From an uncultured Spirochaetota bacterium (GTDB lineage: Bacteria > Spirochaetota > Spirochaetia > SZUA-6 > Fen-1364), in NCBI GenBank assembly GCA_963745235.1, contig CAVUXE010000020.1, positions 1 to 31,127 on the forward strand: a stretch of DNA of 31,127 nucleotides, read 5' to 3'. Position 1 is the stretch's first letter. Each line of letters begins with the position of its first letter. The notes beneath the pieces were generated by a model that had not been told where the DNA came from, ran no database searches, and was given only the letters and a program-made list of their open reading frames with translations. Below, in pieces: positions 9,908 through 31,127 of this stretch. Position numbers and translations under genes: made by a program.

Positions 9908-11250
9908 GCCTCCCAGCGAGGGTTGTTGTGGTGCTTGCTGCCACTGTGATGGCCTGCTCGTGTGCCAAGGGGAAACCGACAACGGTCCTCGATGAGAGAA
10001 TCCCCGTCAGCACGATCGTCATCAAGGATGAATCGGTGCCGCGGGAAGTCTCCAGCTTCGGCACCATAACCTTCACGCGAAAGATCGACATTTCCGCAAC
10101 GGTAGACGGCACCGTGGCGACGCTCCTTGTGAGGGAAGGTCAGCGCGTTCGTGAAGGCCAACACCTCCTTACCCTCAGGAACGTTCAGCTTGAGCTCAGG
10201 CGGCAACAGGCGTTGAGCGGCATTGATTCCGCCCGTTCTTCCCGGGAGCTGGCAGAGGCAAAACTCTGGGAGGGGGAGCTTGCCGTGGAAGCCCGAATGG
10301 TGGCCGTCGAAAGGACGGAGCTTGAACGGGAGCAGAAGCGGCTGGAGGTGGAGGATGCGGCTCAGACTCTTTCCAACAAGGAGGAACTCTCCAAGGTCGG
10401 CGGAGTCACCGCGGAAGCGCTTTCCGCGGTTCGTCTTCGTCTCCTGGCCGCAAAAAACGACTACGCAATGATTGACAAGGACCTGGTGTCGCGCCGGATC
10501 GGGTTGCGGGACGAAGACCTGAAGCGGGATGGTCTTATACCTGCGGCGGACCCTGTCACACGGACCCGCCAGGTTGTGCAGCTGAACACCAAGACCCTGA
10601 AAGCAGACGTGGAAGCGGCGAAGGCCCGATGCGAATCCGCCAAGCGGGATTGGGAGGCATCTGAAGAGCTCTTGAACGCGCTCGTCATAGACGCTCCTGC
10701 TGCGGGCATTGTCGGCGCAAAGTACGTTGAGCAGGGAGAGTACGTCGCGCAGAACGGGAAGATGCTCACGCTCATGGACACCAGCAACGTGTACGCTGCT
10801 CTTTTGGTCCAGGAGTCCGAAATGCCTCTCCTGCGGGAGGGCATGCGGGCGGATCTTTGCGTGGACGCCCTGTCGCCCAAGCCTCTGGCCGGCCGCGTGG
10901 ACACCATCTCCCCGACTGCGGATCCGCAGACGGGGGCGTTCCTTGTGAAGGCCTCACTCGCCAATCCGGCCGGCCGTCTGCGTCCGGGAATGTTCGTTCG
11001 CGCAACAATTACTTACGAAAAGCCGCAGGTGTCTCTTGTCGTGCCTGAAAAATGCATTCTTCAGAAAAAGGGTGGCTCAGCTCAGGTCTTCAGCGTCGTC
11101 AACGGCAAGGCATTTCTCAAGCAGATAACGATAGGGAGGGATTTGGGAGGCTCCTTCATAACGGAAAAAGGGCTTGCAAAGGGCGATGTCCTCATCGAGG
11201 CGCCCCCTCCGACACTACGGGAGGGAATGAATGTCGAGATATCGAAATAG
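9904..11250 (+). CDS. Periplasmic adaptor subunit (MFP) of an RND/TolC system, lipoprotein, with an extra-long helical hairpin
   Basis: Lipobox 'VMACSC'; lipoyl halves 'ISATVDGTVATLLVREGQRVREGQHLL' and 'IDAPAAGIVGAKYVEQGEYV'; 'LRPGMFV'; membrane-proximal 'LVVPEKCI...GLAKGD'. ATGA overlap with the TolC gene. Confidence 0.92.
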   Translation: MSLPARVVVVLAATVMACSCAKGKPTTVLDERIPVSTIVIKDESVPREVSSFGTITFTRKIDISATVDGTVATLLVREGQRVREGQHLLTLRNVQLELRRQQALSGIDSARSSRELAEAKLWEGELAVEARMVAVERTELEREQKRLEVEDAAQTLSNKEELSKVGGVTAEALSAVRLRLLAAKNDYAMIDKDLVSRRIGLRDEDLKRDGLIPAADPVTRTRQVVQLNTKTLKADVEAAKARCESAKRDWEASEELLNALVIDAPAAGIVGAKYVEQGEYVAQNGKMLTLMDTSNVYAALLVQESEMPLLREGMRADLCVDALSPKPLAGRVDTISPTADPQTGAFLVKASLANPAGRLRPGMFVRATITYEKPQVSLVVPEKCILQKKGGSAQVFSVVNGKAFLKQITIGRDLGGSFITEKGLAKGDVLIEAPPPTLREGMNVEISK

Positions 11251-12652
11251 CTTCATCACCGCTTTTCTTGTGATTCTTTGGGGCTGCTCGCTCATCTCTT
11301 TCGACAATCTCAGCGTGACTGTCTGGCCGCACAACCGAGACGCAATCCTGGAAGCCGGGGCATCTCCGTGGGTCGAGTTTCCGGACTCACCGGATCGCCC
11401 ATCTGTTCAGCGGCTCTTTTCCCTTTCAGCGCCTGACGGCCAGGTGTCGGGCAATTTCCGATGGGAAGGGCGGCGGATGTACTTCGATCCTGCTCCGGCC
11501 TTTCGGCCCGGCGTGCGACACGTGCTGTCTTTCCGCGGTCGTGTCACGCTGGAGAATGGGCAGGCATTCGATGCGAACGAGGAAGTGCCATTCTATGTCG
11601 GTCACCGGGGTCCTGGACCTGCTCTGGTCTCCGCCGACCCGGCAGACGGTGCGATCATAGGTATATCGCAGGCTCTTGTCCTGCGTTTCTCCTCGGCCAT
11701 CGACTCGAACAGCTTTTCCAGGGAGTTCGATCTGCAGCCTTCGGTGGAAGTCACAGTAGCCTGGGATTCTCTCAAGCAGCTAGCAGCTGTTTCCCCGAAG
11801 GATGCCTGGACAAACCTTGCAACGTATGCATGGACTGTCGGGAAAGACCTTGCAGCTCCCGACGGAACTCCGACAGGGATCGAGTATTCGGGAGAGTTCC
11901 GGGTGCAGGAGGACTCGACTGCACCCAGCGTAAGCTCAATAGCGCCGGCGTTGCGCGAGACTTTCGTCTCCACAGGCAGTGATCTTGGCCAAGCCGGCGC
12001 GGATGATGTTCTTCTCCTCACCTTTTCAGAGGACGTGCGCCAGGAAACTGTTGTTTCCGCTTTTTCTTTGAGTCCGGCCACTTTGGGCTCGTGGCTGAGA
12101 GTACGCCCCGCAGTATTCGCCTTCATGCCGCAGTCTCGCTGGGTAATGTCCCAGCCCTACACGCTCCGCATTGCGGCAACCGTGGAGGACCTGGCGGGCA
12201 ACAAGCTTGCCTTCCCCTATGAGGCGTCCTTCACGCCGAACATCCCTGTCCAAACGGTGCAGGCCATCAAGGCAGTCTATTCCTCGAGCGAAGACGAATG
12301 GACTGTTTTCAACCGTCTTGATGCGAAATCCGTTGCGGTGGACGTGGATGGAAACCTCCGGCTCGTCATCCGGTTCTCACAGCCGTATCCACCGGAGAAT
12401 GGGGCAAAGCTCGCTTCCGCCCTGCTGCTCGACGCATATTTCCCATCCTCCTTGGGAGACCCGTCGCTTGTCACTGCCCTCTGGACAGGTGGAACCACGC
12501 TTTCTCTTACCTATGCCGGACTCGAGAAAAGCACTGCGGAGTGCGGAAAGTTCTACAAGCTGACGCTGCCCGGCGGCTCGGCTTCATCGGACAATGGGTC
12601 AGGCTCATTCCTGAAGGAAGATGTATGGCTGTATTTCATCACAAACCAATGA
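11231..12652 (+). CDS. Lipoprotein with tandem bacterial Ig-like (Big_5/SbsA-type) domains
   Basis: Lipobox 'ILWGC'. Repeats such as 'PALVSADPADGA...LVLRFSSAID' and 'DSTAPSVSSIAP...LLTFSEDV...YTLRIAATVEDLAGNKL'. Confidence 0.85.
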   Translation: MSRYRNSFITAFLVILWGCSLISFDNLSVTVWPHNRDAILEAGASPWVEFPDSPDRPSVQRLFSLSAPDGQVSGNFRWEGRRMYFDPAPAFRPGVRHVLSFRGRVTLENGQAFDANEEVPFYVGHRGPGPALVSADPADGAIIGISQALVLRFSSAIDSNSFSREFDLQPSVEVTVAWDSLKQLAAVSPKDAWTNLATYAWTVGKDLAAPDGTPTGIEYSGEFRVQEDSTAPSVSSIAPALRETFVSTGSDLGQAGADDVLLLTFSEDVRQETVVSAFSLSPATLGSWLRVRPAVFAFMPQSRWVMSQPYTLRIAATVEDLAGNKLAFPYEASFTPNIPVQTVQAIKAVYSSSEDEWTVFNRLDAKSVAVDVDGNLRLVIRFSQPYPPENGAKLASALLLDAYFPSSLGDPSLVTALWTGGTTLSLTYAGLEKSTAECGKFYKLTLPGGSASSDNGSGSFLKEDVWLYFITNQ

Positions 12653-14163
12653 GGTTGCGATCTCTCTGCAAGGTCCTGGCGGCCGGCCTGTGCACAGGGC
12701 TTCTTGGCTGCTCCCTGTTTCTCGGTCTCGACGCCCTGAGGGTCACTGACTGGAGACCTCACGAAGCTCGGCTTGATGCAGCATCGGTGGACGAGATTTG
12801 GGTGGAGTTTTCCGCAGAGGTAGATGAGGCAAGAGCGGAGCAGGCCTTTTCCCTTTCAGAGAACGGTTCATCCATACCTGGAAGCTTTACGTGGAGCGGA
12901 AAGAGACTTCTATTCGCTCCTGCGCGTCCTGTTGGCGCGGGGAATGACTATGAGATAGCAGTCCTCTCATCCGCGGAGACCAGAGACGGCAACTCGCTGG
13001 CCAAGGACTTTCGGTTCGCTTTTTCGACCAAGGAAGAAACCGGGCAACCCACCATTGTCTCCTTTCAACCATCGGACGGCAGCATGGTGTCCATTCCGCG
13101 TGCCCCTGTTGTCATAAACTTTTCCGAGCCCGTTGATCACGCGTCCTTTATGGCTGCCTTCTCAGTCTCACCTGATCCCGGCGGGACAATCACTTTCAAC
13201 GCGAGCGGCTCGGTTGCCACTTTTGCGCCGCTCGCCGTTTGGATGCCCGGCACGGGGTACAGGGTTGTGATCTCCGACTTGCTGAAGGACCTTTCCGGAA
13301 ACCGGCTTCCTGCGGCGGTCACGTTCGGCTTTACGGCCGGCGCAGAGACAGGTCGGCCTTATCTTCTTTCGGTCCGACCAACTCTCAGCGGCATTCCGCA
13401 GGCAATCGCGCTGACTGCTCAAGATCCGAACGGCCAGACCCTCCAGATAAACTCCGGATTCGAGGCGAACTGGGGAATTGAGCTCCAGTTTTCAGAGCCA
13501 GTCCTCCGGGACAATATCGAATCTTTCATCGATTTCGAACCAGCGTGGGGGTCTCAGATCGATCCTTCCGGAACGCCCCGCGCAAACTACCTCCTTTCAC
13601 CCAAGGAGCTCTTCGTGTGGGGATCTTTCTACTGTTTGACAGTCAGGAAAGGGGTAATGGATATCAGCGGAAATGCAAGCTCCGTTGACACGCGATTCAT
13701 GATCAAGGCGGACGGACTCTCCACCAGGCCGCCCAGCGTGGAGCTGGTCAGGTTCCGCACCAATCCCGGCGACCCAAACCCGACATACGATGCATACACT
13801 GCCAGCAGCTCATTTTCGAACCTGAACCTTTCCAACTTTACTCCCGGTGTGGATGCGGTTTCCTGTTTCGATATCTATCTGCGCCTGGCCGATGGGGCAG
13901 CGGTGGACCCCTTCTCGCTCATGCACACATTTTCGGTGGCGGCGACCAACGGCGCTGCGCTCATTACGCCGATCGCGGTTGCTACCCAGGCTTTTACGGA
14001 CCCTCGACCGGTGCCCGTGTCCGGCCTTGCTCCCGCCAGGATATCCGTGAATATCACCAATACGGCAAACTCAGGTGTCGTTACTCTTGCGGTATCGAAC
14101 GGCCTGACCGACAGCAAGGGCAACAAAGCGGTGGCAGCATTCAGCCTGCCACTCCTGAAATAG
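12649..14163 (+). CDS. Second lipoprotein with tandem Ig-like (Big_5-type) domains
   Basis: Start reassigned to ATG 12649 (ATGA overlap), giving MRLRSLCKVLAAGLCTGLLGC (lipobox). Repeats such as 'PTIVSFQPSDG...VINFSEPVD...YRVVISDLLKDLSGNRL', 'LQFSEPV...VMDISGN' and 'LTDSKGN'. Confidence 0.85.
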   Translation: MRLRSLCKVLAAGLCTGLLGCSLFLGLDALRVTDWRPHEARLDAASVDEIWVEFSAEVDEARAEQAFSLSENGSSIPGSFTWSGKRLLFAPARPVGAGNDYEIAVLSSAETRDGNSLAKDFRFAFSTKEETGQPTIVSFQPSDGSMVSIPRAPVVINFSEPVDHASFMAAFSVSPDPGGTITFNASGSVATFAPLAVWMPGTGYRVVISDLLKDLSGNRLPAAVTFGFTAGAETGRPYLLSVRPTLSGIPQAIALTAQDPNGQTLQINSGFEANWGIELQFSEPVLRDNIESFIDFEPAWGSQIDPSGTPRANYLLSPKELFVWGSFYCLTVRKGVMDISGNASSVDTRFMIKADGLSTRPPSVELVRFRTNPGDPNPTYDAYTASSSFSNLNLSNFTPGVDAVSCFDIYLRLADGAAVDPFSLMHTFSVAATNGAALITPIAVATQAFTDPRPVPVSGLAPARISVNITNTANSGVVTLAVSNGLTDSKGNKAVAAFSLPLLK

Positions 14164-14172
14164 GCCGGGCTC

Positions 14173-17100
14173 ATGAGCGCGCTGATAGCCGCGGCCCTTC
14201 GTCATCCCGTTGGAACCATCATGATATTCATGGGCGCTATGATTCTAGGGCTCGCGGCCGCGGTAAACCTCCGGTTGGAGCTGCTTCCGGAGCTCGCCAT
14301 ACCGAGGCTTACCGTGTCCACGAGCTTCCCCGGGCCTTCCGGCCTCCGAGGTTAGATCTCTCATCACCATTCCTTTGGAGGATCAGCTTGCATCCGTGAA
14401 GAGCGTGAAGCGCGTGTTCTCCGTTTCCCGAGACAGCCTCTCCATCATCAGCCTGGAGTTTTCCTGGGGGGAGGACATGGTGTCCGCCGCGGTGCGGACT
14501 CGGGAGGGAATAGACGTTGCCTACGCTGCCCTTCCTTCGGAAGCTGGCAAACCGCAGGTGCTCCCCGCCGAAGCGGGGGAACGTCCCATAGCGATCATAG
14601 CAGTAAGACCGCGGGCCGGAGACCTCAGCTTTGCGCGCCGGCTGGGTGAACGGGAAATCAAGACGAGGCTTCAGCAAGTGGATGGGGTGGGATCCGTGGT
14701 CCTCTCAGGCGGTACCGTGGAGGAAGTGGTCGTCTCCGTGGACCAGTCTCTCATGGCTTCGAAAGGCTTGAGCCTGAATGACGTGGCAACGCTTGTCGCA
14801 AAGAACAACTATGATTATCCCACAGGCACGATAACGAAGGGAAATCTCGAATACCTGGTCAAGGCGTCAGGGACGGTCACTGATCTCGCGAGCCTCGGCC
14901 GGTTTCGTTTTGTCGGCAACCGTTCCGCGCTCAGACTTTCTGATATCTCCACCATCTCCCTGGCCCCGAGGGAACGGCTTTCCTTCTTCCAGGTTGATGG
15001 GTCCGAAGCCGTCGGCCTGAGCGTCATGAAAAGAAAAGGCGCGAGCCCGATCAAAGTCTCTGAAGGGTTGAAGCAGGAGGTGGCCAGGCTTGCCGCGGCA
15101 TATGGAAAGGACCTGGATATAAGCGTCGTCTCTGATGGCTCCCTATTCATCTCCGCTTCCCTTCGGAGCCTGGCTCTTTCGACACTAGGCAGGGTCCGCC
15201 ATCGCGTTCCTTGTCCTCATCGTCTTCCTTCGTGATATGAGGACCTCGGCTCTCCTCATGCTCTCTTTACCCATTGCAATCACCGTGACGCTGCTGGCGC
15301 TCCAGGTTTTCGGGAGGACGGTCAACATCATGTCCCTCGGGGGCCTTGCCCTCGCCATCGGGATGATCGTCGACAACAACGTCGTGATCCTGGAAAACCT
15401 CCAGAAACGACACCTTGGAGCTCGGGCTACCGCTGACAGCGTCCTGAGACACACCCTGGAGCTGGCGTCCTCCCGCCTGGGGTCTATGCTGACGCTGATC
15501 GTCGTCTTTCTGCCGGTCATCTTCCTCCCCGGTCTGCTCGGAGCACTTTTCACGGACCTCTCACTGTCCGTCATTTTCGCGCAGATCGCCTCCTTCCTGA
15601 CGTCGATATCGCTGATGCCGGTGCTTTTTCTGCTGCTGGAGCGCGGCTTTCCCCGAAGACGAAGGCAGGGCCGCCGGGCACTGCCTGACAGCATCTTCCG
15701 TCGCCTGCTCCTGATGTCGTTCAGGAAGCCGTGGACCGTTCCAGGCCTGGTAGTTGCGCTCACTGTCCTGGGCGTGCTCTGCGCCACCCGCCTCGGATTC
15801 GATTTCATGCCTGCCCAGGACACAGGCGAAATCGACGTGGCAATAGTGATGCCCTACGGGACTGCACTTGAGCGCTCGGCCGCCGTCAGCGCCGATGCCA
15901 CGCGGCTAATCCGCCGCATTCCCGATGTGCGCAGAGTCCACGCACGGGCCGGGGGCGAGCCTGAGGATGCCCAGTACTATGCTGATCCCGAAGAGCGTCG
16001 GGAGATCATTCACCTCTCTGTGGCCCTGAACAATCCACGTGTTCATCCGACTGCTTCGATTGCAGAAGCAATCAGGTCATCCCTCGTGATTGATTCGGCG
16101 GAAGTGAGTGTTGCGCTTCCCGGCTCTGTCATCGCTCCCCTTCTCGGTCTTGGCGCACAGGGGCGCGCAATCGTGGTCAGGGCGACCACGCAGGAGGAGG
16201 CTCGGCGCAGAGCGCAAACCATCTCCGCGCGGTTCGCACGCGGGGCGCAGGGAAAGCAGCTTGCTTCCCGCGTGACCGTTCAGCCGAAAGGGGAGACCAC
16301 CGAGGTTCGGCTGATCCCCGACAGGGACGCGATCACTCAGGCTGGATTGTCCCTCTCCGACCTTGCTGAAACAGTGCGAAATGCGATAACGGGAACGTAC
16401 CCCTCCCGTATGAGCATGGAAGGGCGGGAGCTCGATGTGCGCGTTCGCGTGGACCGGCGCCAGACATCTCGCCCCGAGGATTTGCCGGCGATCGTCGTGG
16501 GGACCCCTGAGGGCTCAGCGGCCCGGCTTTCAGCGTTGGTGCAGCAGCATTCCGAGTCGGCAGTGCCGGCTCTCTACCGCCGCGACAGAGCGGACGCCGT
16601 GATTGTGAATGTCGAGCCGGCTGCCGGCGGGAACCCCGGGGTGGCCGCTGAGATCGGCTCTCTGGAGAGGCGCTACGATTGGCTGAGGTCCGTTGAAGGT
16701 TCAGTCCTGACAGAGAACATCTCCTCCCTGATAGTGGCTTTTGCCCTGGCACTCGCGCTCCTCTACCTTGTCCTTGGCGCCCAATTTGAGTCGTTCCTCC
16801 TGCCAGCCCTCCTGCTGACAGCTCTTCCCCTTTCGTTCTCTGGAATAAGCCTTGCGCTGGCGCTTTCAGGAAAGCCAATCAGTTTTGACTCCGCCCTGGG
16901 AATCATCGTGCTGTTCGGTATCGCGGTCAACAACTCCATTATTCTCTATGAGACGTACTCCGCCCGCAGAAAATCGGGAGTCCCTCTCCTGGCCGCAATC
17001 TATCAGGGCACATCGGACCGAATGCGTCCCATCCTGATCACCATGCTCATTACCGTTCTTTCTCTTCTGCCAATCGCAATCGACTTCTCTCACACATCCG

Positions 17101-17225
17101 CGGAGAGCGGAATGGCCGTTGCCATTATTGGAGGTCTGTTCGTATCGACCATTCTCACGCTGTTCGTGCTGCCGCAGCTTTTTGCCCTCTACTTCCGCCG
17201 GAGCAGGCGACGTGGGAATCGCTAG
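14173..17225 (+). CDS. RND (AcrB-superfamily) permease 1, about 1,016 aa after repairing two +1 frameshifts
   Basis: N-terminus 'ALRHPVGTIMIF...LELLPEL..P'. Repair at ~14335 gives 'FPGLPASEVRSLITIPLEDQL'; repair at ~15189 gives 'TLAGSAIAFLVLIVFLRDMR'. Motifs 'NIMSLGGLALAIGMIVDNNVVILEN', 'AQFES', 'GIAVNNSII' and 'RMRPILIT'. Confidence 0.92.
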
Positions 17226-20200
17226 CCTGTACCGCAGGCCGGTTGCCTCCGCCACTGGCCTTCTCATCGTCCTCATCGTTTCGGGGGCAGTCATTGCGGG
17301 GACGCGTCTCGGCCCCTCCGGAGGAGAGGAAGGTGCCGCCTTCTCCGTCATTGTCGAGCATTTCGGAGTGAGTGCCAGAGAGATCGAGAGGACCATTACA
17401 CGCCCTTTGGAGGATGCCGCAGGCACTTTGCAGGGCTTGAAAAGCCTCCGTTCCATGTCGGAGTATGGCTCCTCGCGCGTCACCGCCTTCATGAGACCAG
17501 GGGCCAACAGCCGGGAAACGTATCTCCAGCTTCGAGATGCAGTGGACCGCGTGTACAGCGAGCTCCCAGAGTCAGTTCAACGTCCAAGGATACTCGCATC
17601 CGGGGAAGAAGCGCGCCCTGTCTTTATCGCCTCCGTGCGTTCTTCTTCAATGGAATTCGCTGATCTGGCCACCATGCTGGAAAAAGAGCTCAAACCCTCG
17701 CTGGAAAGAATCGAGGGCGCGAGCGAAGTAGAGGTGGGAGGCGGATCACCGCGGGAGATCCACGTTGAGCTTGATGAGAGGCGAGCCTCACGGGCGGGTC
17801 TGGATGCCGCCTCGGTTGCCCGGGCAATCCAGTCCAGCGAGCTTCTGGCTCCGCTCGGCACGGTCCGGGAAGAAGGGAACGAGCTATCCGTCGTCCTTTC
17901 CGGCAGATTGGGGGACCTGGCGGCGCTCAGCGGCTTGCATGTCCCTGCCGCGGAAAGCAGTATGGCACTCAGCTCCCTGGCAAAGGTTGAATACGCAGCC
18001 CGGGAGCGGGATGAGATCAACCGGGTGAACGGGACCGAAAATGCCGTGCTTGCAGTGAAGAGCACAGGGGGAGCCAACCTTATCGAGCTTTCCCATGCAA
18101 TTCGCAGTGAGTCAAAGAGGTGGGAAAAGAAGGGGCTTGCGTTCGACATCATCCTGGATGCGGGGGCAGCGCTGGAGAAATCCCTTCGAAGCATTCTGGA
18201 AGCCATACTCTTTGCGGTTCTCGTCTCCGCTGCCACATTGCCCATTTTCATCTCCGGCGCGCGTCGGATTCTTGTCTTGTCCGCGTCGATACTTGTGATC
18301 GGTTTTGCGAGCGCGGCTGCGATCTCAGCGGTCGGGTTCAGTCTTGATACCTACATCCTCTCGGGGCTTGCCATCGGGATTGGAACCATGATCGATACCG
18401 GTATCATCATCGCCGGCCGGGCGATGCCGGGCATGAGCCGGGATGCATACTTCGCGGACGTGGAGCGCATCATCCCCGCTCTCCTCTCTTCCACACTGAC
18501 GGCTCTTATCGTGCTGATACCCCTCCTGGCCCTTGATTTCGGCGGCGGAGGGATCCGAGAAGTATCGCTGTCCCTGGCGGCCTTGATGGGGATTTCATTC
18601 GTTCTCTCATGTCTGTTCCTTCCGTCCTATGCAATTGGGACGCGAAAGGGCAGGCGCAACGGTGTGCACAAGCAAAAATCTGCAAGAGGCCCCATACATG
18701 CCATTCGCCGCAGCGCGCAATGGATCGCCAGGCGAATCATTACCGCCTGTGCTGCTCGTTTCACATGGCCGCTGGTAGCCGGGGCAGGCCTGGCCGCGCT
18801 CGGAATATGGGCGGTTGCATCCATCGGCATCGACCTGGATCCTCCGCCGCAGACAGATTCCATTCCCGTCCATGTTGAATGCGAAAGCGGAGCCTCCATC
18901 GAGTCCGTGGATGCCTGGACGTCTTCATTCAGCTCCCGGCTGCAAAAGACTCGGGGAGTATCAGTAGTCCAGAGCACAGCCAGGCGCGGGAGCGCAGAAG
19001 TGGAAGTGGGCTTCAACGCATCTCTCGTAAATCGCGAGGTCCTATCGAAAGCAATCAGGACGGACGGGCGCGGCATCCCCGGGGGGTTTGCTTATCTCCC
19101 CGAGGGTGTCGGAGCGACAGAGAGGGCTTTGGAAATCGCAATCACTGGTGATGATGATGCCACACTCAAGGAGTATGCGTCACAAGCTGCGCAGCTTCTC
19201 GGGGGGGAAAGCAAAGTGAAGGAGGTCGTTCTCAACTTCAAGGAGCCGGCACCTTCCTATGTGTTCAAGGTTGATCCAGAGCGTGCCGCCGCAGCCGGAG
19301 CTACCGCCGAAGCGGTGGCTGGCGCATTGCGCTGGCATCTGTACGGCCCTGTCGCCCTCAAATGGATATGCGAAGAAAGGGAGATGGACCTCCGAGTCAT
19401 GGGCACGCGGAGCACGGAGCCAACTCTCCTTGACCTCGCCAAGGTCCCTGTGCCAACCGGAAACGAAAGCACGGTGCCTGCTCAGGCAACGGGGGGGTTT
19501 TTCCTGTCGGGGGAGGGAGGCAAGCTCTATCGGTTGAACCGGCAGCGGGTGGTCTACCTGACCGCGCACATGGAAGCGGGGGACATCGGGCAGATAGTGC
19601 GTGGGGTCGAAAAGACCCTCAGTTCCCTGAGCATGGCGCCCGGGTACGCGCTCGAGGTTGGAAGAGATCTGGTGGAGCAGGCGGAGCGGTTTCAGACCCT
19701 GTGGGTGACATTTGCTTTATGCACAATGCTTGTCTATCTGGTCCTGGGCATTCTCACCGAGTCATTCCTCTGGCCGCTTGTCATCCTTGCCGTCCTTCCC
19801 GCCTCTATAACCCTCCCGCTCATCATTATGAAGCTGACCGGCCAGCGCCTGGTGGAGCCAGTCCTCATTGGTCTGATCGTGTTGAGCGGGATGGCGGTGA
19901 ATAATTCCATCCTCATTGTGGATGCCTATCGCGCGGGAAGCCGGGCAAGGGAGGCCAGCGCGCGGAGGGCGTGGCTCTCGGCGTTCTGCGGCTGGTCTCA
20001 GTGCAGTGACGGATGCTGTCCTTTCGCGTCTCTCAGCCCTGACTGCCACATCCGGGGTAACGGTCCTCAGTCATTTCCCCCTTCTTTTTGCAGCCGGGCA
20101 GGGGGCAGCTTTCATGCGGTCCCTCGCGTTTGTCATAATTTGGGGCATCGCCGGGTCATATGCGGCCACTGTTTTCCTCACCCCGGCTCTGCTGAGCCTG

Positions 20201-20269
20201 GCGGCGAAACGGCCGCCGAACAAGGTACAGGCGCTTAAGGGGAAATTGCAAAATGAGACATTGGGCTGA
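17212..20269 (+). CDS. RND permease 2, divergent, about 1,018 aa after one +1 frameshift near 19950
   Basis: Probable GTG start at 17212 ('VGIASLYRRPVA'), overlapping permease 1. Motifs 'GVSAREIERTITRPLEDA', 'LAIGIGTMIDTGII', 'LTESFLWPLVIL' and 'GMAVNNSILIVD'. TM11-12 continue in the 19916..20269 frame ('SRLSALTATSGVT...MRSLAFVIIWG'). Confidence 0.88.
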
Positions 20270-20341: not shown

Positions 20342-23300
20342 ATGAAAGTGCATGCGGTCTTGGGAACTCTTCTATCCGTTGTCCTTGCGCTCGCCCTGAC
20401 CGCTTCCGCGGCCGCGCAGGAGTTGCCTGGCAGCGTCAAGGGATTCAAGAAAGAAACGCTGGAAGTCTACTTCAACCGGGCCGACCTCGAGCGGGAAAGT
20501 TCTGCCTGGGAGAGAGTTGCGAAGCTCGGCGCAGAGGCAGCGATTTCCCAGTGGGAGCGGGAAGCAACCGAGCTCTATTGCGACGCGCCACAAGCCGCTC
20601 AGGCCCGAGATCAGCTCATCGGTTGGGCAGGCCGTCAGATGGAAGACCGCTATGAGAAGTGGCTGACACGGCGGTTCTTCGAACGCGAGGGGGCCTTGGG
20701 GGCCGAAGCGGTCCTGCGCGCAATCTCAGCGGCGGACCTGCAGTACCTGTATAGAACAGATGAGTCTGGAAACGTTCTCCTTGACGAAGCCGGAGACCCC
20801 GTTCTGCGCGAAGCAGACGGGCTGCAGGCGGATCGGGAGGGCTGGAAGGCGAAAGTAGCTTCTGCCTCTGACGCTGTCCTTGCCGCGTGGGAACAGAAAG
20901 TTGACACGGCCTTTGCCCCTGAGCTTGGAGACCTCCTGGGTCCTGAGGCGCTCTCGAAATTCGGGGAATACAAGGCGAACGAAAAGGCAGGCTTGCGTCG
21001 TGAGATGGAGCATGTTGCGTTGCAGGGTGAGCTTTCACTCGCGGCAAGAAGACTGTACGACCAGTATTCCCTTCGCAAGAAGAGCGAAACGGCGACCGCT
21101 GATTCAATTGCGGACCAGATCGTCAAAGAGACTCAAACTCACACGGCCCAGGGAATTGCCCAGATCAAGGCCGGATTGAACTTGGCGCCTGACGCCGTGG
21201 ACATGGCCGCTCCCAACATCGAAGCTCAGAGGTGGCTTGAGAGCTTCAAAGCGGCTTTCGAGAAAGGACTCTCCCAGTGGGATACAGCGGAGGAAAAGTT
21301 CCTTGTCAGCCGAATGGAATGGGAACGGGATGCCGGCAAATCCTATTCCGAAGGGGAGAAGGCGTGGTCAACGGCGTTCGAAAAGCTCACAACCGCGCGC
21401 AAGGGTTGGGAGCAGGAGGTAGACCAGCTCCTGCAGACAGGCGCCGCGAAGTGGGGTCAAGCGCGTTCTGAGCTATCGAGTGCAATCAGTGGAGCTCGAA
21501 CGGAGTTTCAGAACGAGTGCACCGAGCGTTTGAGCGCAATGCAGGATCACGTAGGTGCACTCGTTGACATGTATGCGCAATCCGCTCAGGTCGTTTCAAC
21601 AGCCGTCTCTTCGGGCCAGGAGCTGATCAGGAAGCTGAATATACGGGATGGGAACGGAGAGTACGTGAAATGCTCCCCGGACGCGGATCCAGCAATAATT
21701 GCTTTCCGAAAGCAGCAGTGGAGCGGATACATTGCGGGATTGAACAATGAGATCGCGAGCCTGAATCAGCAAAAGGCCTCTATCCCGGCTTGGGTTGAAC
21801 AACACCTGGAGATGGCAACGTGGCTCCCGATGTTGCAGGGCTACGCGGACACCCTCCAACGACTGAATAGCGCGATAGGGACGAGAACAGCGCTCGTCAG
21901 CTTGATGAGCTCCGTCGACCCTGGCGCGTCAGTCCGGGAGGCGAATCCTACGCTGAATGAAGTGTTGAACGCCTACCTGGAATATGTGACCAACACCGCG
22001 GGAGATCCCAACAGGGCAGCATCGGTCCAGGCGGACTGGGAGCGTCTGGGCCGTCTTGGAGATTGGCTCACAATGATTGACACGTACAGCGCGCAGGCCG
22101 CCACCGCAAAGCAGCAGATGCAGGAGGCACTGGGGAGCGCTTTCGGCAGTGATGCCTCAGACTTGCGGGACGTGCTCAAAACAGACTCCGATGCGGGAAT
22201 CACGTATCTCGATGAGTATCAGCTCGAGCTTCTTCGGGCCAAAGCGGTTCAGGACTACTGGACGCAGAGGAAGGCGGTTGCAGACGCGGTTGTGGCCTAC
22301 GCTCAGGACATCTCAAGCGGCAGGGCCACCGAGGATGAGGGAGAAAAGAATCTCGCCTCGGCCCGCTCAGCATATGAGGCTCAGCTTGCTGATTACAACA
22401 GGGTCTTGAACGAACTGAGGTCGAAGGGGGGCAATCTTGATTCCGCCCGCCAGAAGCTTGAAGCGGCGCAAGACGCAGTGGGCGCAGCCTCGACAACATA
22501 CGAGGAGACGCGCCAGAAATACATGACCGCGCTTGCCTCCTCCCAGAGCGGGAACGTGGATTTCTACAAGAAGCAAATGGAGCAAAAGTACAGTGAGCTT
22601 CTGAGCGCAGGCGGCATGACCGCATCGGACACCGGGCTTGCAGATGCCGCAACGGAGTATTACGCAGCCGCGCGACGTTACGGCTATGACCTTGCAGTCA
22701 ACAGCGCGTGGGCCAAGGCATCGGAGCTGGTAAGAGGAAACCCTGAGTCCAGACTCCTTTCACTTGCGGACCTCAAAGCCGCGGCGGAAAAGCTGCGGGT
22801 GCCGGCTTCGACAGATGAAATTCCCGCGGATATTGAAGGTCTTGGCGTTTCCCTTGACTCCGCAAACTACGCAAAGGTTTCCGCTCTGTTTGGTGCATGG
22901 AAAGGTGCTGCAGGAGACGCCCGAACGCAGGCGGCATGGAAGCTCCTCCAGTACCTGGGAGTCATCGCGGCTGACGCCAACCAGGCATGCGTCCAGAGGC
23001 TCGCGCTGATACGGGCGTACGGGGCGGCAGATGCTGTTACGTGGTATGCCGAATCTGGCGGAAAAAGGACTGACGGGAAGCTGGAGGAGCGTTTGTCAGC
23101 CGACTCTGCAGCCGCGGCCCTGTCACTGATAGAGGCAAGGGCGCATGTTGAGATTCTGGGGTTGGAGGCGTGGCTCGATTTACAGAACGGACAGACTCCA
23201 TCTGACAAGGACGCGTTGATGCTCGCCCAGTCCGCGCAGGAAGGACTAAGCCAGGAAGAGGCACAGAGCCGTATTGAGATGCTCGCTGCTTTGATTTCAG

Positions 23301-26300
23301 ACCTCAACGGCGCTTCCGCGGATGTGTTCGGTGCAACCTCGAGGCTGAGAGCTCTGGCGAGAAGCGGCGGTTGGATTCAATCATTTGTCGGCGGCGCGGG
23401 AAGCTTCGTTGACTCTCAGGCTGGGGATCTGACTCTGACGATGTGCACAGACCAGTACCAGGAAGCCAACCGAGCCCAGGCGCTGGTCTCAGCATGGATG
23501 AATGCTTCTGTAAACAGCATCGCGCTCGTAGCAGAAAGGGAAGCATCAGCGCTTGATTCGATCAAGAAAGTCTTCTCGGATCATCAATTGAGCCTCAAAG
23601 ATGACGACGCACTTCCGTCCTCGGAAGACGTGGCTACCATGATCAGGCTTTCAGACCCGGATGAGGCCGCGACATTCGTTTCTGAGCTTACTCAGGCGCT
23701 GCAGGAAGCGGCCTCCACCGGGCCGCGCTGGTTGGCAGACCGGATCAGGGATTACTGTTCCGCCATTGCCCGGGTATGCCGCGGCGGAGGCTGGAAGCCA
23801 CGTATCAGCGCAAACGGCTTCAGTAGAAGCCGCGTCCGCCGAGGCAGCCGCTGCAGCAGATTCATCAGCCAGGTCAAACCTTCGAACGCTGGCGGAGGAG
23901 CTCCAAGGGGGATCCCGCCTTTCGGCGCTCATGGAGTTGTACACTCGAAACGACAAGCCGTCCGCTTCGGCTGCGTCCGCCCATGATCTCATCGTCGACT
24001 CAGGGGCAATTGAGGCTGCAAAGAGATCGCTTGCTGATCCTTCGATTTCCCTTCAGAGCATCGCCGCCGATCTCGCGCCCGGAATGACAACCATGCTTGC
24101 GAGTGAGATCGCTGCTGAAGCTCAGAAACTGCTTGATGCCCAAAAGGGTCAAGGACCAACAGGCGAGCGGGTCGCCGCTTTTCGAACCTGGAGCACCCTC
24201 AGTGTGTCTCAGGCAATCGCGGGACTCGTTGTGAGCTCCTTTGCCGCCGACGCGAAGAGACTTTGGGACGAAGTTGCTTCGAAGACCTGGTCCAGCCAAC
24301 AGCTATTGAGCGAAGCCCTCGCCGGCTACCTTGCCAGTTGTAGCGAAAGCAGTCCCGCATCGGATCAGATCAAGCAGCTCTGCTCGCAGTTGGAGTATGG
24401 TCTTGATGATCGGGATGCCCTTTTCCGCAGATTCTTGTTTGGAAGTGACTTCGATGCGCGTCTGTCATCGCTCGCAGCCATGGGAGCTGCGGGAACGGTC
24501 TACCAACGAGCAATCGCTCTGACAGTCGCCTCGCAATCCAGTGGCGCTGTATCAGGCCGGCAGCTCGCGAGTTTCCTGCTGGATCGGACGGGGATAACCG
24601 GCGTAGCAGACGCAGCTGATTTCGCGGGCACAGCGTCTCAACTGGAGCAAACCGCTTTCTCAGGAAGCGGAGACCTCGCAGTCGAGTACTTGTGCAAGAA
24701 CCTTGTTCTGCGAGGCGTTTCGATTCCTGAAGACCTCGAAAAACAACTTGCCAAGAGCTCAGCCGCTACTGAGAAAGTGAATCAGTTCAAGGAAATGCTG
24801 GGGAAGGTCCGGGGATATGTCGCTGCCTTGGACGGAAACGCCCAAGCCTACGCGCAGTCTCTGGGCGGGGACTTCATGTCTCGAGACGCACTCGCGGCCT
24901 CAATTTCCGCCGGACAATGGAATGATGATCTTTTTGCTGCAGGCTCGAACGCCGACTACCTGAGCTGGTACGATCAGATGAATGCTTCGAAGCTTGACGC
25001 TGCAGGGCAGATGATCCTGGAAGAGCTTGCGCTGGCGTCCGTGGATTTTAGCAGCAAGTCGGCTGTCCATTCAGCCGAAGCGTCCTATTGGCGTCAGGTG
25101 GAACGGCAACCCAGCCAGGCCACCTCTTGGCGCGTGTACCTGACCGGAAACGTCGGAACTTCGGTGACTGTGGAAAGCGCAACCAGCGCTCAGACACGGG
25201 ACGGGAACGGTTATGTCCAATGCGTTTCGGATTCCGCAGAGAATGTCACCCTTGATGCGTTCAACTCCCTCGCGCAACAGGAAAATGCTTTCGTGAGTCA
25301 GCTTGCGGCAACCAGGGATGATGGCGGTTCCGTGGCCCGATTTCGTTCATTCCTGGAGGCCTTCGCGGCCGGGAATGCCAAGGCGAGCGACCTGCCGGTG
25401 TCGAGCGAGCAGGAAGTGAACGCGGCGGAGGGCGCATATCGCTCTGAGCTTGCCAAGGTGCAGTCGCTGAAGGATGACATACGCCGCTTCGGAGAAGCCT
25501 TGAAGTTCCTGGACCTGGGTAGTGAAGAGCGCCAGGCAGAGTTGGATGAGCTGAGGAACAGCGCGGATAATCTTGCAATAAAGGTGGCAAACAAGCAGGT
25601 CTTGGTTGATACGGCGCTGGGGGACTTCGAGGGACAAGGAGCCCTCTATAACACTGCCTACGCTGAATTGCAGATATCTTCGGAAAGCCTGGAGAAAGCG
25701 CGCTTCATGCTTCGGGTCAGTGAGGAGATACAAGACTGGGCTTCAAACGGCTACCTGACCTCGCGGGGAGAAGCGGCCCAAAGCTACCAGAGCCCCGTGC
25801 AGATGCAGACAGATGTTTCCGAGAAGCTCACTCGTGCCGCAGCGGCGGTGGATGCGCTGAAAGAACTGTACGGCGAGTCACCTGTCACGGACAGACCGAT
25901 TGGTGACGCAGCCACTCTGGCCGCATATGACGCATGGAAAACGAGCTATGCCGAGCTGTTGCGGTTGAAGCGAGTCACCGGCGAATTGGATGAGGCAACC
26001 ACGGAACAGGGGAAAAAGGTCGAAGAACAGTTCGAGTCGCTCCAGAAAGCGAGGGATGCAATTCTTGACGGGTCCCGGGTGGATGCAAACCTCACATGGT
26101 CGGATGACGAAACAGAAAGAGCAGGCAACTGGACCAGCTATTTGACTTTCCAGAATGGTCGGCTATCGTTGGACATTTCCGTCGATTTCAAGTTGCACGC
26201 GCAGCAGACCAAGGATGAGTGGCAGACCGTCAAGGACTATTTCGACGTCCGAGAAGCTGACGGCGGGGATCCCGCGGAGGCCGCCGCAAAGAGTGACTTC

Positions 26301-29300
26301 GAGCGCCAGATGGAAGCATGGCAGACAACTGTGAACACCTATGCCGCGAAGTTCGGCGGCATGAGCGCACTGATTGACCGCTGGGGCTTTGCTGCAGATT
26401 ACCTCAAGCGGCGGCTGTATGACAGCAACGGGAGCGGGTCGCTGGGCTATCTCGAAAATTATCAAAGTGACGACAAATTCATGCGAGACAACAACTACCT
26501 GGACATCCACACCAGCGGTGAGGATCTCAGAGGCGCCGCCCGCGACTGTCTGAGAGCCGCAGTGACATTCGCCCAGTCTCAATACTCGGCAGTAATGGAG
26601 AACGCCGATGAAAGGGACGCATTCGAGTTCTATTTTGCAGTCCGCATAGCGAGCGCTGGCGGAAACGAAAATCAGTTTGACCAGTTCAATTCCCGAACAA
26701 GCGCTTCAGCCTTGCGAATGCTTACGCAGAGGTTGCAGGATACCATAGAGAGGCTTCGCGCCAACCGCCGTGCTCCATTCGGCTGGATTTCGGACGCTGT
26801 CGCGGATTGGACCGGGCAAGCAAGTGCCCTTGACAACAAGAAGGGGGACATTGAAACCCTCCTGAATGGCTTTTCTCCAAACATCCTTGGAAGCTCAATA
26901 TCAACGTTCACCCAGGCAAGGCGTGACTACGAGTCCGGTTGCGCACGGCTTGCCGAGCTGAGAGGGACTGACGGGGCTCATTTGACTTCCGTGGAGGACT
27001 TCCTGTCGCAGTATCGAAAATTAGCCGCCCAGAGCCAGGGCATTGCAACCGACCTGGCGAGGGTCTCCTCCGAGCTGGAGGCCCAATTCCGCTCGGCATG
27101 GAGTGTGCTCGCGGCGGAAGACAAGGTGTCCTTCAGCAAAGCGCTGCAAGAGATGACTGTTGTGGCAAGTGTGAATGCTGAAGACGCTCGTGGGAAGACC
27201 GTACTCGCAGCTCAGGCAGCGGAAGCGAAGGCAGCGGATGCGCAGCAAGCCTATCGATCCGCCTACGAGGCTTATGTCGCGGGGACCGGGACGAAAGCTG
27301 ACATGTTGGCAGCTGCAAAGAGTGCCTATAGGGATTCACTGTGGGTCGCAAAGGCTGACCAAGAGCTCCTGTCCGGCGTCCTTGGTGACGCTGCATTCTC
27401 TGCTGGCGTACTGCTCAACGACTCCGAGTCCAACACCAGGATGAACGCGCTTCAAAGCTATGCCCAGGCCGTACTTTCTGTTTATTCAGGAGCGCTCAAA
27501 TCGCGCGAGACGGAGTTGGAGCAAAAGTGGGGTCAATCCGTGCAGGACCTCGGCAGCCGCCAACAGACCTGGTACGCACAAGTTGGTCTTGTTCGGGCCA
27601 AGGCGGCCAGCGCCTGGGATGAAAGCCAGCAAAAGCTGCTCGAAGCGTTTGGACAGTGGCGGGAGGGCTTCCAGCAGGAATATGGCGACAAGAGTGATGC
27701 GTGGAACGTTGCCTACCTTGGCCTCGTGGAGAAGAAGGATGATTGGGTGCAAGCCACGCGGGAGAAGGCAGCCAAGGCAGGCAATGAGGCCATTCTCGGC
27801 GAGGTGGGTGCAAGCGCGGATGACAGTTCGCGAAGCGCGAGCACGCTTTTGATCGGGGACATAAGTTATGACCCGAAGGAGGCCACAACGAAGGTTCAGA
27901 CGCTCCTTGCGGAAGTAGGGAGCGGACAGTCACTTACGGCGCTGAAGCGGATGAGCTCGGGGATTGCGCCAGAGTCGGTGACGGTGGCCAGCGGGAAACT
28001 GGGAGCGGACACCAGTGGCGCGCGGATTGCCAGCGAGGTGAAGCGCTTTATCGCAACAAGCAGGAAGGAGCTCTCGGCGTTGGCGGCTCGGGGGTTGGCA
28101 GATGATGCCCGAACGAGCGTGGAGGAAGCGAAGAAGGCGCTTTCTGAGAGTGTGAAGGAAGCGAACAAAGGCTTTGAGAAGAGCATGGATGAGGTGTTTG
28201 TCACCGTTGGGTACGGGACGGGCGGAGGAGAGTACAAGCGGGAGGCAGTGAAACGGAGCACGCTCATCAGCGGTCTCATAATGGAGACGCAGCGGGTGGA
28301 GGCGTACCGGTGGTATGCGATGCCGAGGCTGGAGCTGAAAGTGGATTTGAGCCAGGGGAGGCTGAACGGTCTCGAGGCCGGGGCGGTGATGGATCTTGTC
28401 GGCATAGCGCAGGAGGAAGTCGGGGAGCAGCAGAATAGGATCTTCGGGGAAGGGAAGAAGCTCACGGACGCAGAGAAGAGGGCCAAGGGGCTTGTGTTCG
28501 AAATCACAGCAAACGGAGAGGCGAAGACCAAGGAGCTGGGGGAGGGGGAGTTTGGGCAGTGGGTGGGGTATTCGCCAGAGTTCGCCAAGGAACCTGACTT
28601 CGACAAGTCTCAGAACGACAACATAGTTGTGCAGGGCAAGGGGGAACTGGGGCGCCTGATGGGCGCTTTCATCTGGAATCAGACGAAGGAGGCGCGGGGT
28701 TGGTCGGAGGTGCAGAAGCCCACGTGGGACAAGGCGCTCTGGGACGACACCGGCAGCTGGTTCAAAGCCCCAAGCTTGAGAACCGTGGGATCGATAGCCG
28801 CAGGGGTGGTAGCGACCCTGGCAACGGGAGGGATCGGGGGGATTGCCGGAATCGTGGCCACTGCCGCGATAAGCACATCAAGCACGCTTCTGTTTGACAC
28901 GCTGGATGTGGTGAGCGGCTACAAGACATGGGAAGAGGCAGGGCTGGATATAGGGAAGAGCTTCCTGACGAGCGCGGCGACGAGTACGGTAGGGGGCGTG
29001 TTCAACGGGTTCAATCCGAAGGAGGTCGGGGGGATCGCAGGAGCCTTGGGAGATTTCGGCAAGGCGCCCATCGGGAAGGCGCTGCTGGCCGGGGCGCAAG
29101 GTTTTACGACGAACACTGCCACCAGTGCGCTCAGCGCGTTCTCTTGGAGCAACGGCAAGCTTGGGTGGGACAAGGACGCGTTCCTCACGGGGTCGTTTGG
29201 GACAGGAACGTGGGCGAGCGTTGCAGGGGCCTCAGGAAGCGCGTTCACCAGCGGGCTGATGAGCATGGCGAACATGGTGGATGGGAATGGCACCATCCTC

Positions 29301-31127
29301 AGCAGTAATGTGTTCAATACGAGAGGGATTAGTAGCTTCAACAACCTGACGGGAGGCCTGGTCTCAACGGGTATACAATATGGGATGACTGGGGACGCTA
29401 CGTTGAACCTGATGAACATAGCTGACTTTGGCAGCGAAAGGGGTTACGGACTGCTGGAGATGCACCTGGACAAAGCAAGGGTTCAGCATGAACCTGGGCA
29501 GTAATGGAACGAATGTCAGCTTGGGAACAATCGCTTCGAGCATGGGCGGGGTTGGCGAATCGTATAAGATCACCGAGGCGAAGTATGAAAACCTGCAGGG
29601 GGATAAGCCTGCACTTACGACATTGAACTCGGCCAATGGGCTTGGCTACACCGACAACAAAGATAACTATCAGTTGGCGAAGGATATTTTGAACGGGAAC
29701 AAGAATGTCGTTTACTATAACGCATCCACTCCAGCGGTCACAACGCAGGACCTTGCCGCGCTTGCCTATGCAGGAGATGACGGGAAGTCGATTTATGTCA
29801 ACTCCAAGCTGCTTGGCGGAAAAAGAAGGGGCCGCGCAAGTTGCATCAATCATGTCTCATGAAGCCAAGCACCTGGCAGGGAAAGATGAGTTCGAATCAC
29901 GGATGACGGAGACCAGTGCGTATTCCGATTTGATGAAGGCGTGGGGCGTGACCGGAGCCGGAGACGAGGATACAGGGCTCGCCTGGGGCGCAAGCATGCT
30001 GCGCAAGATAGGGGCCGGCGGCTATGGGTTTGTGCTTGACGCGCAGATCGCTAGCCTTCCTGTCAGCTCAAGTGGAAGGGTGTACGACCAGGCGCCGGCA
30101 CAGGACTCGGGGTCCTTGCGCAGACTCAATTGCGACGGGCTATAACAAGCACGAATACGGAATCGAACAAGCTTTGGGATTATCTGGTTCAATCAGGTGA
30201 CAAAGGAAAGATAGCTGACATTCTGTGGGACAGTGGTACATTCTCCAATTTCACTGCCGGCGTTTTGTCTGAAGAAGCCGATGGCAGTGCGTTTGCGCTG
30301 CTGGGCGGCCTGCGTGATGCGTTAAAGGACTCCACGGACTTTGCCGCCGGAAGTATCCTCAGCCACGACATGCTTCAGTACACGACAAACGTGTTCCGCG
30401 GCAGCAACGGGATGAATGGGCTTTCAGGGGCGTTATTCCTGGCGAACCTCGCATCGGAGGACGTGGTACGAGCGGGAAATGCGAACGGGTATTTGATCAA
30501 CGATGTGGCGCGGACGTACGAGGGGGAATATCTCAATATTAACTACGACAGGACTGGGGCCATCGCCGGCGATCTGACTGGAGCGCAGTACTACATGAAC
30601 TTCAATCTCAAAGGCCCGGGGATGGCCAGGCGATCACCGGGTATTTCAATTGGCCATGGGTTAGTTCACCGACCAGTACCCCATCGCTGGATTGCATTGG
30701 ATATGTCAACACAGTGCTGTATGCGTCCGGGGCCCAAAGCCGGGCTAGCTCTAAATGCAAGTGTCAAGGGCAATAAAACTGAGGTTGGCATATGGTCGAG
30801 GGAATACACATCAGCGCATGCTGCTCAGTTGGACACGGAGTCGGGAATTGTGGCAAATGGGCTAAGTCGCACTTTCCTATATGGCGGGTGGCCTCAGATG
30901 GTTGCCGACAAGAAGCAGGCGAACCAGTACGTGGGGGGCGTGTTGCTTGCCTATGGAGATGATCGAAAGACATGGAGCGACACCCCTCAGGTAGGAGACC
31001 TCGTCTTCATGCAGGGGCATGTTGGGTTCTATGGTAGTAAACGATCTCGGGCAAAACATCCTGAGTACATAGCGCACCGCGGCTGACGGGCTCGGCGGGA
31101 CGACATATGGAGCAGGTCCGAGAGAGA
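20342..31127 (+). CDS. Giant secreted helical protein, candidate polymorphic toxin (about 3,580 aa or more), fragmented by small frameshifts; 3' end uncertain (TGA at 31086 or beyond the window)
   Basis: Sec signal peptide 'MKVHAVLGTLLSVVLALALTASAAA-QE'. Five overlapping + strand ORFs (20342..23986, 23661..29504, 29428..29862, 29705..30145, 30130..31086) join through small indels at ~23770, ~29473, ~29822 and ~30120-30150. Each upstream fragment decays into non-protein-like sequence exactly where the next frame becomes protein-like. Confidence 0.82.
21233..21454 (+). repeat. Trp-periodic helical repeat, block 1 (six Trp, spacing 15-14-15-14-15)
   Basis: W-LESFKAAFEKGLSQ-W-DTAEEKFLVSRME-W-ERDAGKSYSEGEKA-W-STAFEKLTTARKG-W-EQEVDQLLQTGAAK-W. 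Confidence 0.85.
27528..27746 (+). repeat. Trp-periodic helical repeat, block 2 (six Trp, spacing 14-15-14-15-14)
   Basis: W-GQSVQDLGSRQQT-W-YAQVGLVRAKAASA-W-DESQQKLLEAFGQ-W-REGFQQEYGDKSDA-W-NVAYLGLVEKKDD-W. Confidence 0.85.
29780..29935 (+). other. HEXXH zincin-like metallopeptidase motif within the giant protein
   Basis: After removing one A at ~29822 the frame reads 'KSIYVNSKLLGGKEGAAQVASIMSHEAKHLAGKDEFESR'. HEAKH lies at 29858-29872. Confidence 0.65.
30620..31086 (+). other. NlpC/P60 (papain-like) cysteine hydrolase domain at the C-terminus of the giant protein
   Basis: Frame 3 reads 'SLDCIGYVNTVLYASG' (Cys codon 30693-30695); frame 1 reads 'TPQVGDLVFMQGHVGFYG'. Confidence 0.7.

Follow-up and report, generated by a model that had tools for sequence, protein, structure and literature searches.

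Enzymes of the NlpC/P60 family (PF00877), among them LytE, CwlO, MepS/Spr, RipA/RipB and T. vaginalis NlpC1, share a papain-like core in the canonical, non-permuted order, in which the catalytic cysteine is located at the start of a helix, the histidine at the start of a strand and a third histidine on the following strand. Their common motifs are D-C-x-G-(Y/F)-V, G-D-x-x-F-x-x-G-H-x-G-x-Y and I-H-S/A, and the superfamily also includes acyltransferases, deamidases and other amidases. Small stand-alone proteins with a papain-like Cys-His hydrolase fold, Tse1 and Tae1-Tae4, are exported by type VI secretion systems (T6SS) to a periplasmic target and have an adjacent gene for a secreted partner (Tsi/Tai). 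A further group, the Tox-NLPC/P60 tips of polymorphic toxins, is known from Bacteroidetes and delta-proteobacteria and resides on carriers of the T6SS, PVC and TcdB/TcaC type with RHS repeats; for these tips, the relevant part of the describing article names no immunity family (Zhang et al. 2012, PMC3482391). Here we report on a domain related to these enzymes which forms the C-terminal tip of a giant protein encoded at the end of contig CAVUXE010000020.1 (C20) of an uncultured Spirochaetota bacterium (assembly GCA_963745235.1). The whole contig of 31,127 nucleotides was analysed and is referred to as the window; the genome to which it belongs (G000) comprises 5.85 Mb in 104 contigs, is 85.7% complete and harbors two further copies of the locus on contigs C95 and C78, the three copies being ~98.5-99% identical to one another. 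With a probability of roughly 0.65, we favor a joint explanation in which the broken reading frame of the window copy is due to indel errors of the assembly, while the tip is a divergent NlpC/P60 domain on a Sec-exported giant protein, probably an antibacterial effector with a periplasmic immunity partner.

The open reading frames (ORFs) of 1,214, 1,947, 144, 146 and 318 amino acids in the window are, judged from their alignment, pieces of a single gene of ~3,640 codons, as the homologue P0036 (3,613 aa) maps collinearly across them in tblastn searches (20342-23767 in frame 2, 23766-29468 in frame 3, 29473-29910 in frame 1, 29822-30118 in frame 2, 30106-31035 in frame 1 and 30615-30734 in frame 3). 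As assembled, the gene proceeds through 20342-23767 in frame 2, 23766-29468 in frame 3, 29473-29820 in frame 1, 29822-30105 in frame 2, 30106-30620 in frame 1, 30621-30735 in frame 3 and 30739-31035 in frame 1, and then through frames 2, 3 and 2, which amounts to nine frame changes, at ~23767, 29470, 29821, 30105, 30621, 30736, 31036, 31064 and 31088. The features of the gene are the following:

20342..31127, + strand: giant gene of ~3,640 codons, ended by the contig edge; collinear with P0036, P0011, P0016 and P0020 and aligned at the DNA level to C78 and C95
20342..20419, + strand: Sec-type signal peptide MKVHAVLGTLLSVVLALALTASAAAQ, judged by eye from the translation
29470..31090, + strand: error-dense tail with eight indel sites, and with 22 window-specific substitutions in its 29390-30774 part
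29858..29872, + strand: HEAKH (HExxH) motif, located after the glycine-rich region and before the tip; frame 2 in the assembly
30130..31127, + strand: C-terminal tip domain, helical in its N-terminal part and with a putative NlpC/P60-like core behind it; intact equivalents are P0001 and P0002
30621..30735, + strand: frame-3 stretch with the conserved LDCIGYV, bounded by indels relative to all other copies
30693-30695, + strand: predicted catalytic Cys codon, frame 3
31018..31020, + strand: predicted catalytic His codon (GHVG; H298 of the intact copy), frame 1
31068..31070, + strand: predicted third member of the triad, a His in the (I/S)HSAP motif that corresponds to H314 in the intact copy, frame 3

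The catalytic cysteine had been proposed in the initial annotation to be concealed in a second frame by a pair of compensating frameshifts. In the window, frame 1 of 30620-30735 translates as MARRSPGISIGHGLVHRPVPHRW..., the same bases in frame 3 give DGQAITGYFNWPWVSSPTSTPSLDCIGYVNTVLYASGA, and the partner motif PQVGDLVFMQGHVGFY is again read in frame 1 at 30985-31035. A search of the genome itself and translation of the matches revealed that both C95 and C78 possess a single open frame across the equivalent of 30621-30735, reading ...GPGYGQAITGYFNGPWVSSPTSTPSLDCIGYVNTVLYASGALKAGQALNAS..., and, over the region, ...NFNLKGPGYGQAITGYFNGPWVSSPTSTPSLDCIGYVNTVLYASGALKAGQALNASVKGNK...PQVGDLVFMQGH(I/V)GFY...; this frame is open over 1,109 codons in C95 and 879 codons in C78, and the frame equivalent to the window's frame 1 contains a TAA stop. 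As C95 and C78 translate openly as the LDCIGYV form, frame 3 is, by these comparisons, the conserved reading and, with its identity to external homologues (87% to P0003 and 77.5% to P0036), is far beyond chance. Base-by-base alignment to the intact copies demonstrated that the window has one base less at 30621 and two bases less at 30735-30738, which accounts for the path from frame 1 to frame 3 and back to frame 1. Thus, the hidden cysteine and the frameshift pair both exist as proposed. The pair is not isolated, however, but represents two of the nine frame changes along one gene. As assembled, the three predicted catalytic codons lie in different frames, the Cys at 30693 in frame 3, the His at 31018 in frame 1 and the second His at 31068 in frame 3, where it is placed after two gains of a single base at ~31036 and ~31064. 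In total, the last 1.66 kb of the window contain eight indel sites relative to C78 and C95:

29469-29470: -2
29820-29821: -2
30105: -1
30621: -1
30735-30738: -2
~31036: +1
~31064: +1
~31088: +2

Since the last ~60-65 codons of the tip lie beyond the contig end, the domain was analysed on the intact C95 copy, P0001 (389 aa), of which P0002 is the equivalent in C78. In an alignment of 16 rows, Cys189 is kept in 13 of the 13 rows covering it, within D-C-x-G-(Y/F)-V, His298 in at least 90% of the rows, within G-D-x-x-F-M-x-G-H-x-G, and His314 in all 16, within I-H-S-A-P, followed by an S-G-P-R motif. Structural modeling by AlphaFold2 (mean pLDDT 58, pTM 0.68, 70-90 in the core) predicted a helix at 189-200 that begins at C189 and strands at 298-304 and 310-316, of which the former is started by His298 while His314 is located on the latter, a placement that the model shares with the NlpC/P60 enzymes. 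Upon comparison of this model with 48,161 chains by VIA-align, the top 23 rows reached Z scores of 8.4-10.9, with root mean square deviations (rmsd) of 2.1-2.8 Å over 110-125 residues, and at least 19 of the 23 are titled NlpC/P60, peptidoglycan or cell-wall hydrolase, autolysin, endolysin or endopeptidase. Among them are 6bim (Z 10.9, rmsd 2.3, 121 residues aligned), LytE (8i2e; Z 10.2, rmsd 2.1, 110/118) and MepS (8xud; Z 9.6). The modeled papain-like core and the conserved Cys, His and His support the assignment of the tip, ~390 residues in length, as a divergent NlpC/P60-type papain-fold hydrolase-like domain, in line with what the initial annotation had suspected.

Several features set the tip apart from the NlpC/P60 enzymes. 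The spacing between C189 and H298 in the intact copy is 109 residues, while it is ~52-55 residues in P0010, P0011, P0016 and P0020; as these four homologues are without the extra ~55 residues, the latter are, by this comparison, a real and variable insertion, as had been deduced earlier from the long Cys-His distance. The tip further possesses an extra conserved helical segment in front (motif FRG..G..GL) and a conserved C-terminal extension (SGPR, ND.Y, F..W), its scores stay below the Pfam cut-off (see below), and it ends a protein of 3,100-3,900 amino acids. An exhaustive HMMER search retrieved only 19 relatives of the domain among 1.84 billion representatives, three of which are proteins of 3,122-3,413 amino acids that carry it at the C-terminus, and the domain profile gave no match at E <= 1e-5 in 300 other genomes sampled across the phylum.

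The giant protein consists of a glycine-rich hydrophobic region, followed by the HExxH segment and then the tip, and it starts with a hydrophobic leader similar to those of P0036 and P0011; no Pfam or NCBIfam domain was identified in the pieces encoded by the window. The HExxH motif is also present in P0036-P0041 and, as its segment in the intact C95 copy gave only a weak Peptidase_M48 match (E 0.018, below cut-off), may mark a zincin-like processing peptidase. A search with the body region retrieved 13 giant proteins, one of which, P0046, is the genome's own, leaving 12 external ones that are labelled by their source as Spirochaetes, Treponemataceae or Treponema. Three of the 12 carry the NlpC/P60-like tip, and the tip profile found no match in the other nine. 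Eight of these nine, P0039-P0043, P0045, P0047 and P0048, continue beyond body residue ~527 or ~664 into unrelated tails of 360-540 residues, and the ninth, P0044, stops where the body match stops. Residues 2932-3039 in the tail of P0048 weakly match Peptidase_M23, another peptidoglycan endopeptidase family (E 6.5e-4, below cut-off), and the tails of the other giants (P0039-P0047) matched no family. Judged from their sequences, these proteins represent a conserved carrier with alternative C-terminal tips, the arrangement by which polymorphic toxins are recognised. Trafficking modules of type V secretion and contact-dependent inhibition systems (T5SS/CDI), of the T6SS (PAAR/VgrG), of type VII secretion systems (T7SS; LXG/WXG) or of the RHS type were not found by Pfam or NCBIfam in the window pieces, the C95 copy and 11 giant homologues. 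A search with a three-row alignment revealed a single related locus in named genomes, L008 of an uncultured Spirochaetota metagenome-assembled genome (MAG).

The gene directly 3' of the tip is syntenic in C95, C78 and L008 and encodes a protein of 384-396 amino acids with a signal peptide. Its 13 homologues are all unnamed or annotated as hypothetical, and for six of them (P0026, P0027, P0028, P0030, P0031 and P0034) the recorded length of the longest contig equals that of a giant or tip homologue or of C78, which suggests that they share a contig with it. The DNA of C95 and C78 is ~99-100% identical except for one cassette, which spans the final ~85 residues of the tip together with the first ~310 of the downstream protein (G000:C95:4754-6200 versus G000:C78:3867-5300, loci L007 and L006). 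The downstream proteins of C95 and C78 are 51% identical overall and 100% identical over their last ~75 residues, and the C-terminal ~90 residues of the protein are highly conserved. The end of the tip and the variable part of its partner are exchanged together, which suggests that the two are an effector-immunity binding pair. A model of the downstream protein showed a generic resemblance to beta-propellers (pLDDT 56.5, Z 8-10, rmsd 4-5 Å) that is uninformative with regard to function, and complex predictions of tip residues 80-389 with residues 30-384 of the partner scored 0.00 and 0.01 relative to a mark of 0.32, which is neither for nor against binding.

With the Tox-NLPC/P60 polymorphic toxins, as outlined in the pertinent part of Zhang et al., the locus shares an NlpC/P60-clade peptidase that forms the very C-terminal end of a large secreted protein, the relatives of which bear other tips, a metallopeptidase-like HExxH segment upstream of the tip and a neighborhood rich in mobile elements. 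It differs from the tips described there in that its carrier, a giant protein of spirochaetes that is as yet uncharacterised, has a Sec signal only and no RHS, PAAR or VgrG module recognised by Pfam, in that the domain is divergent, with an insertion and extensions, and in that the candidate partner is a large secreted beta-propeller-like protein. The likeness to Tse1 and Tae1-Tae4 extends to the fold, as predicted by the model (Tae3, 4hz9, Z 7.1; Tse1, 3vpi, Z 6.8), to a target that for the tip would likewise be periplasmic, and to the adjacent gene for a secreted partner. In contrast to these stand-alone proteins, the tip is fused to a giant carrier.

As the exchangeable tip on a conserved carrier is followed by a gene for a co-varying secreted partner, an antibacterial effector with a periplasmic immunity partner is the probable function of this pair. 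The giant protein would be exported by Sec and the tip would then cleave peptide or amide bonds of peptidoglycan stem peptides, with Cys189, activated by His298 that is oriented by His314, attacking the stem-peptide bond; the HExxH segment may release the tip, and the partner would probably protect the periplasm as the immunity protein. As an antibacterial toxin the tip is plausible but unproven; the signal peptide of the giant protein also speaks for this role, and the description of the tip in the initial annotation as a cell-wall-degrading toxin acting in the periplasm of a target appears reasonable from its context. The narrower assignment to the Tse1/Tae type, however, did not hold. In the genome, at its completeness of 85.7%, no match to the T6SS sheath protein TssC/VipB (PF05943) or to Hcp (PF05638) was found, with a positive E. 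coli control, and the structural matches to the effectors (Z 6.8-7.1) fall below those to housekeeping NlpC/P60 enzymes (Z 10-11). These two results would also fit the main functional rival, in which the tip is a genuine NlpC/P60 hydrolase without a toxin function and is directed at the producer's own cell wall; there it would remodel the peptidoglycan, e.g. for the passage of the giant protein or its anchoring in the periplasm of the spirochaete, and the downstream beta-propeller-like protein would have a structural or regulatory role. Structurally, the tip indeed matches housekeeping endopeptidases and autolysins (LytE, CwlO, MepS, RipA/B) best, and the size of the partner and its conserved C-terminus are unlike those of typical small immunity proteins. 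We nevertheless regard such self-directed remodeling as rather doubtful, in view of the alternative tips on a conserved body, the joint exchange of tip end and partner between copies, and the presence of a multi-copy locus flanked by IS66 and reverse transcriptase genes. Alternative tips, joint exchange and multi-copy loci flanked by mobile elements are typical of conflict systems.

A number of results weigh against the joint explanation with respect to fold and function. NLPC_P60 is the best Pfam match of P0001 (14.6 bits) and P0002 (18.9 bits), but both scores are below the gathering cut-off of 23 bits. It is also the top match in eight of the ten homologues scanned, of which only P0013 (24.6 bits) exceeds the cut-off, with P0021 (22.8 bits) and P0018 (22.3 bits) just below, and the window's own frame-1 ORF gave no NLPC_P60 match at all. 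As P0001 and P0002 stay below the cut-off and P0013 alone passes it, the domain is a remote branch and not a routine member of the Pfam family. The confidence of the AlphaFold2 model is low outside the core, and the Foldseek comparison to the Protein Data Bank (PDB) that had been proposed for it returned weak rows (best E 0.13, many of them NlpC/P60 entries); the fold assignment is based on VIA-align. A single-sequence PDB search with the tip gave no match, and a profile search of the PDB gave one non-significant NlpC/P60 chain (4xcm, E 1.8). With regard to function, no known delivery system was found for the tip, and its partner is about three times larger than typical immunity proteins.

An error-prone assembly is the most likely source of the nine frame changes, the compensating pair among them, which would then be consensus errors. 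The organism itself most likely has an uninterrupted frame that includes DCIGYV, and the errors would be aggravated at a contig end where three copies of ~99% identity come together. In this assembly, rpoB passes from frame 1 to frame 3 and back to frame 1, a compensating pair of its own, rpoC is spread over three frames and gyrA over two, and ileS on C52 is broken into about eight pieces within 2.4 kb (G000:C73:99187-106818, G000:C9:61778-64167 and G000:C52:183641-186074); among the five essential genes tested, only secA is whole. Hence, the idea that the frameshift pair masks the cysteine in a biological sense was not sustained, as consensus errors, which also break rpoB, rpoC, gyrA and ileS, fit best. 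Recoding, by programmed frameshifting or by phase variation that toggles the catalytic cysteine, would explain why a -1 and a -2 change restore the frame and flank the catalytic motif. However, no homopolymer or short-repeat tract is present at the indel sites, the frame changes number nine and not two, none occurs at these sites in the two sister copies or in any homologue, and essential genes exhibit the same pattern, all of which renders recoding extremely improbable. Phase variation was dropped for the lack of repeat tracts. A diversity-generating retroelement, which had been considered with regard to the reverse transcriptase downstream of the C78 copy, was dropped as the differences are not adenine-specific and include indels.

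More serious is the possibility that the indels are real and that the window copy, one of three, has truly decayed into a pseudogene from which no hydrolase tip is made. Eight indel sites and 22 private substitutions are concentrated in the tail of 1.6 kb, with none in the preceding 5.7 kb, one of three copies could be dispensable, and an in-frame window allele is not seen in any independent data set. The density of indels in the tail (8 sites in 1.6 kb) exceeds that in rpoBC (4 in 7.6 kb), although it is like that in ileS. Against decay stands the finding that essential single-copy genes of the same assembly are broken likewise. Moreover, of the 23 private substitutions between 27974 and 31030, 22 of them within 29390-30774, 14 (61%) are synonymous in the corrected frame, compared to 23% expected at random (P ~1.3e-4), an expectation that assumes an equal chance for every single-base change and would be raised somewhat by transition bias; in the DCIG frame, five of the six substitutions within or next to the frame-3 stretch (30618-30738) leave the amino acid unchanged. 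This excess argues that the window allele was coding, in the corrected frame, while it evolved. Contigs covering 29300-31127 from four of four soil-metagenome runs of two studies display the in-frame form at each indel site that they cover, and the window's indel form was not seen in the contigs of these runs; the X3 and X5 contigs have the window-type G at 30092 and yet keep the extra C at 30105, i.e. they are without the deletion. Finally, the last 90 bases of the window pass from C95-like to C78-like with extra bases at the joints, which has the look of a mixed-copy consensus. On the other side, the in-frame contigs carry C95/C78-type letters at most window-specific sites and may thus come from other copies, and the window's own allele was not recovered in the runs (the best contained 0.42 of the sampled words). 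Taken together, we consider a decayed copy to be unlikely and retain assembly error as the explanation. Of the window-specific changes, which include those at 29608, 29963, 30280 and 30651, three (at 29963, 30280 and ~30620) convert a Tyr codon of the other copies to Asp by T to G at the first codon base, an unusual recurrence. In line with assembly errors, the C78 copy too bears private indels, at 24558 and 28751.

A compensating frameshift pair is accordingly an expected artefact in this assembly that should not be read as biology and, given the split rpoB, rpoC, gyrA and ileS, any finding in this genome that is based on a frameshift is suspect. A modest but real finding is left, namely a rare and divergent branch of NlpC/P60 that ends uncharacterised giant spirochaete proteins. 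If the effector reading is true, the repertoire of polymorphic toxins would gain a new type of carrier as well as a new immunity family, and the locus would point to interbacterial antagonism in soil spirochaetes, on which, to our knowledge, little is known. It might even be speculated, as a tentative and somewhat doubtful extension, that environmental Spirochaetota, including MAGs labelled Treponemataceae, possess an undescribed class of Sec-exported carriers of 3,100-3,900 amino acids with exchangeable tips that attack the cell wall (NlpC/P60-like, possibly M23-like and several of unknown fold), each accompanied by a co-varying secreted beta-propeller-like immunity protein. Such carriers would act as a contact-dependent or surface-displayed weapon without type V, VI or VII secretion, and tip and immunity gene would be swapped as one cassette between near-identical flanks. 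A survey of the literature on NlpC/P60, polymorphic toxins and spirochaetes yielded, among the titles listed, none on these giant proteins, which does not prove that the family has gone unpublished.

Genes for an outer-membrane factor, an HlyD-type membrane-fusion protein, Big_5 proteins and two RND transporters directly precede the giant gene on the same strand (window 8504-20238); TPR proteins are also encoded upstream in the window. The AcrB-type gene (14375-17225) is broken at 15235 between frames 2 and 3, and two Big_5 ORFs (11231-14163) share 111 bases and may be one gene; the AcrB split, the Big_5 overlap and the frame change near 23767 are probably further indel errors in the window. 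Downstream of the C78 copy (L006), an IS66-family transposase is encoded in two overlapping pieces (L006 48-1539), possibly as the result of a further frameshift, and the reverse transcriptase found there (RVT_1; L006 2139-3146) perhaps belongs to a group II intron. At the C95 copy (L007), a gene of the beta-lactamase fold (serine hydrolase) is found in two pieces around ~1.8 kb with a PIN-domain gene (L007 730-1557, 2681-3106 and 3382-3876), which could be the result of an insertion into the gene or could represent two separate genes. In L008, the giant gene is likewise fragmented, into at least six ORFs, and is followed downstream (8834-12857) by a probable restriction-modification pair, as judged by eye, an IS200-like transposase and then a second partial body of a giant gene.

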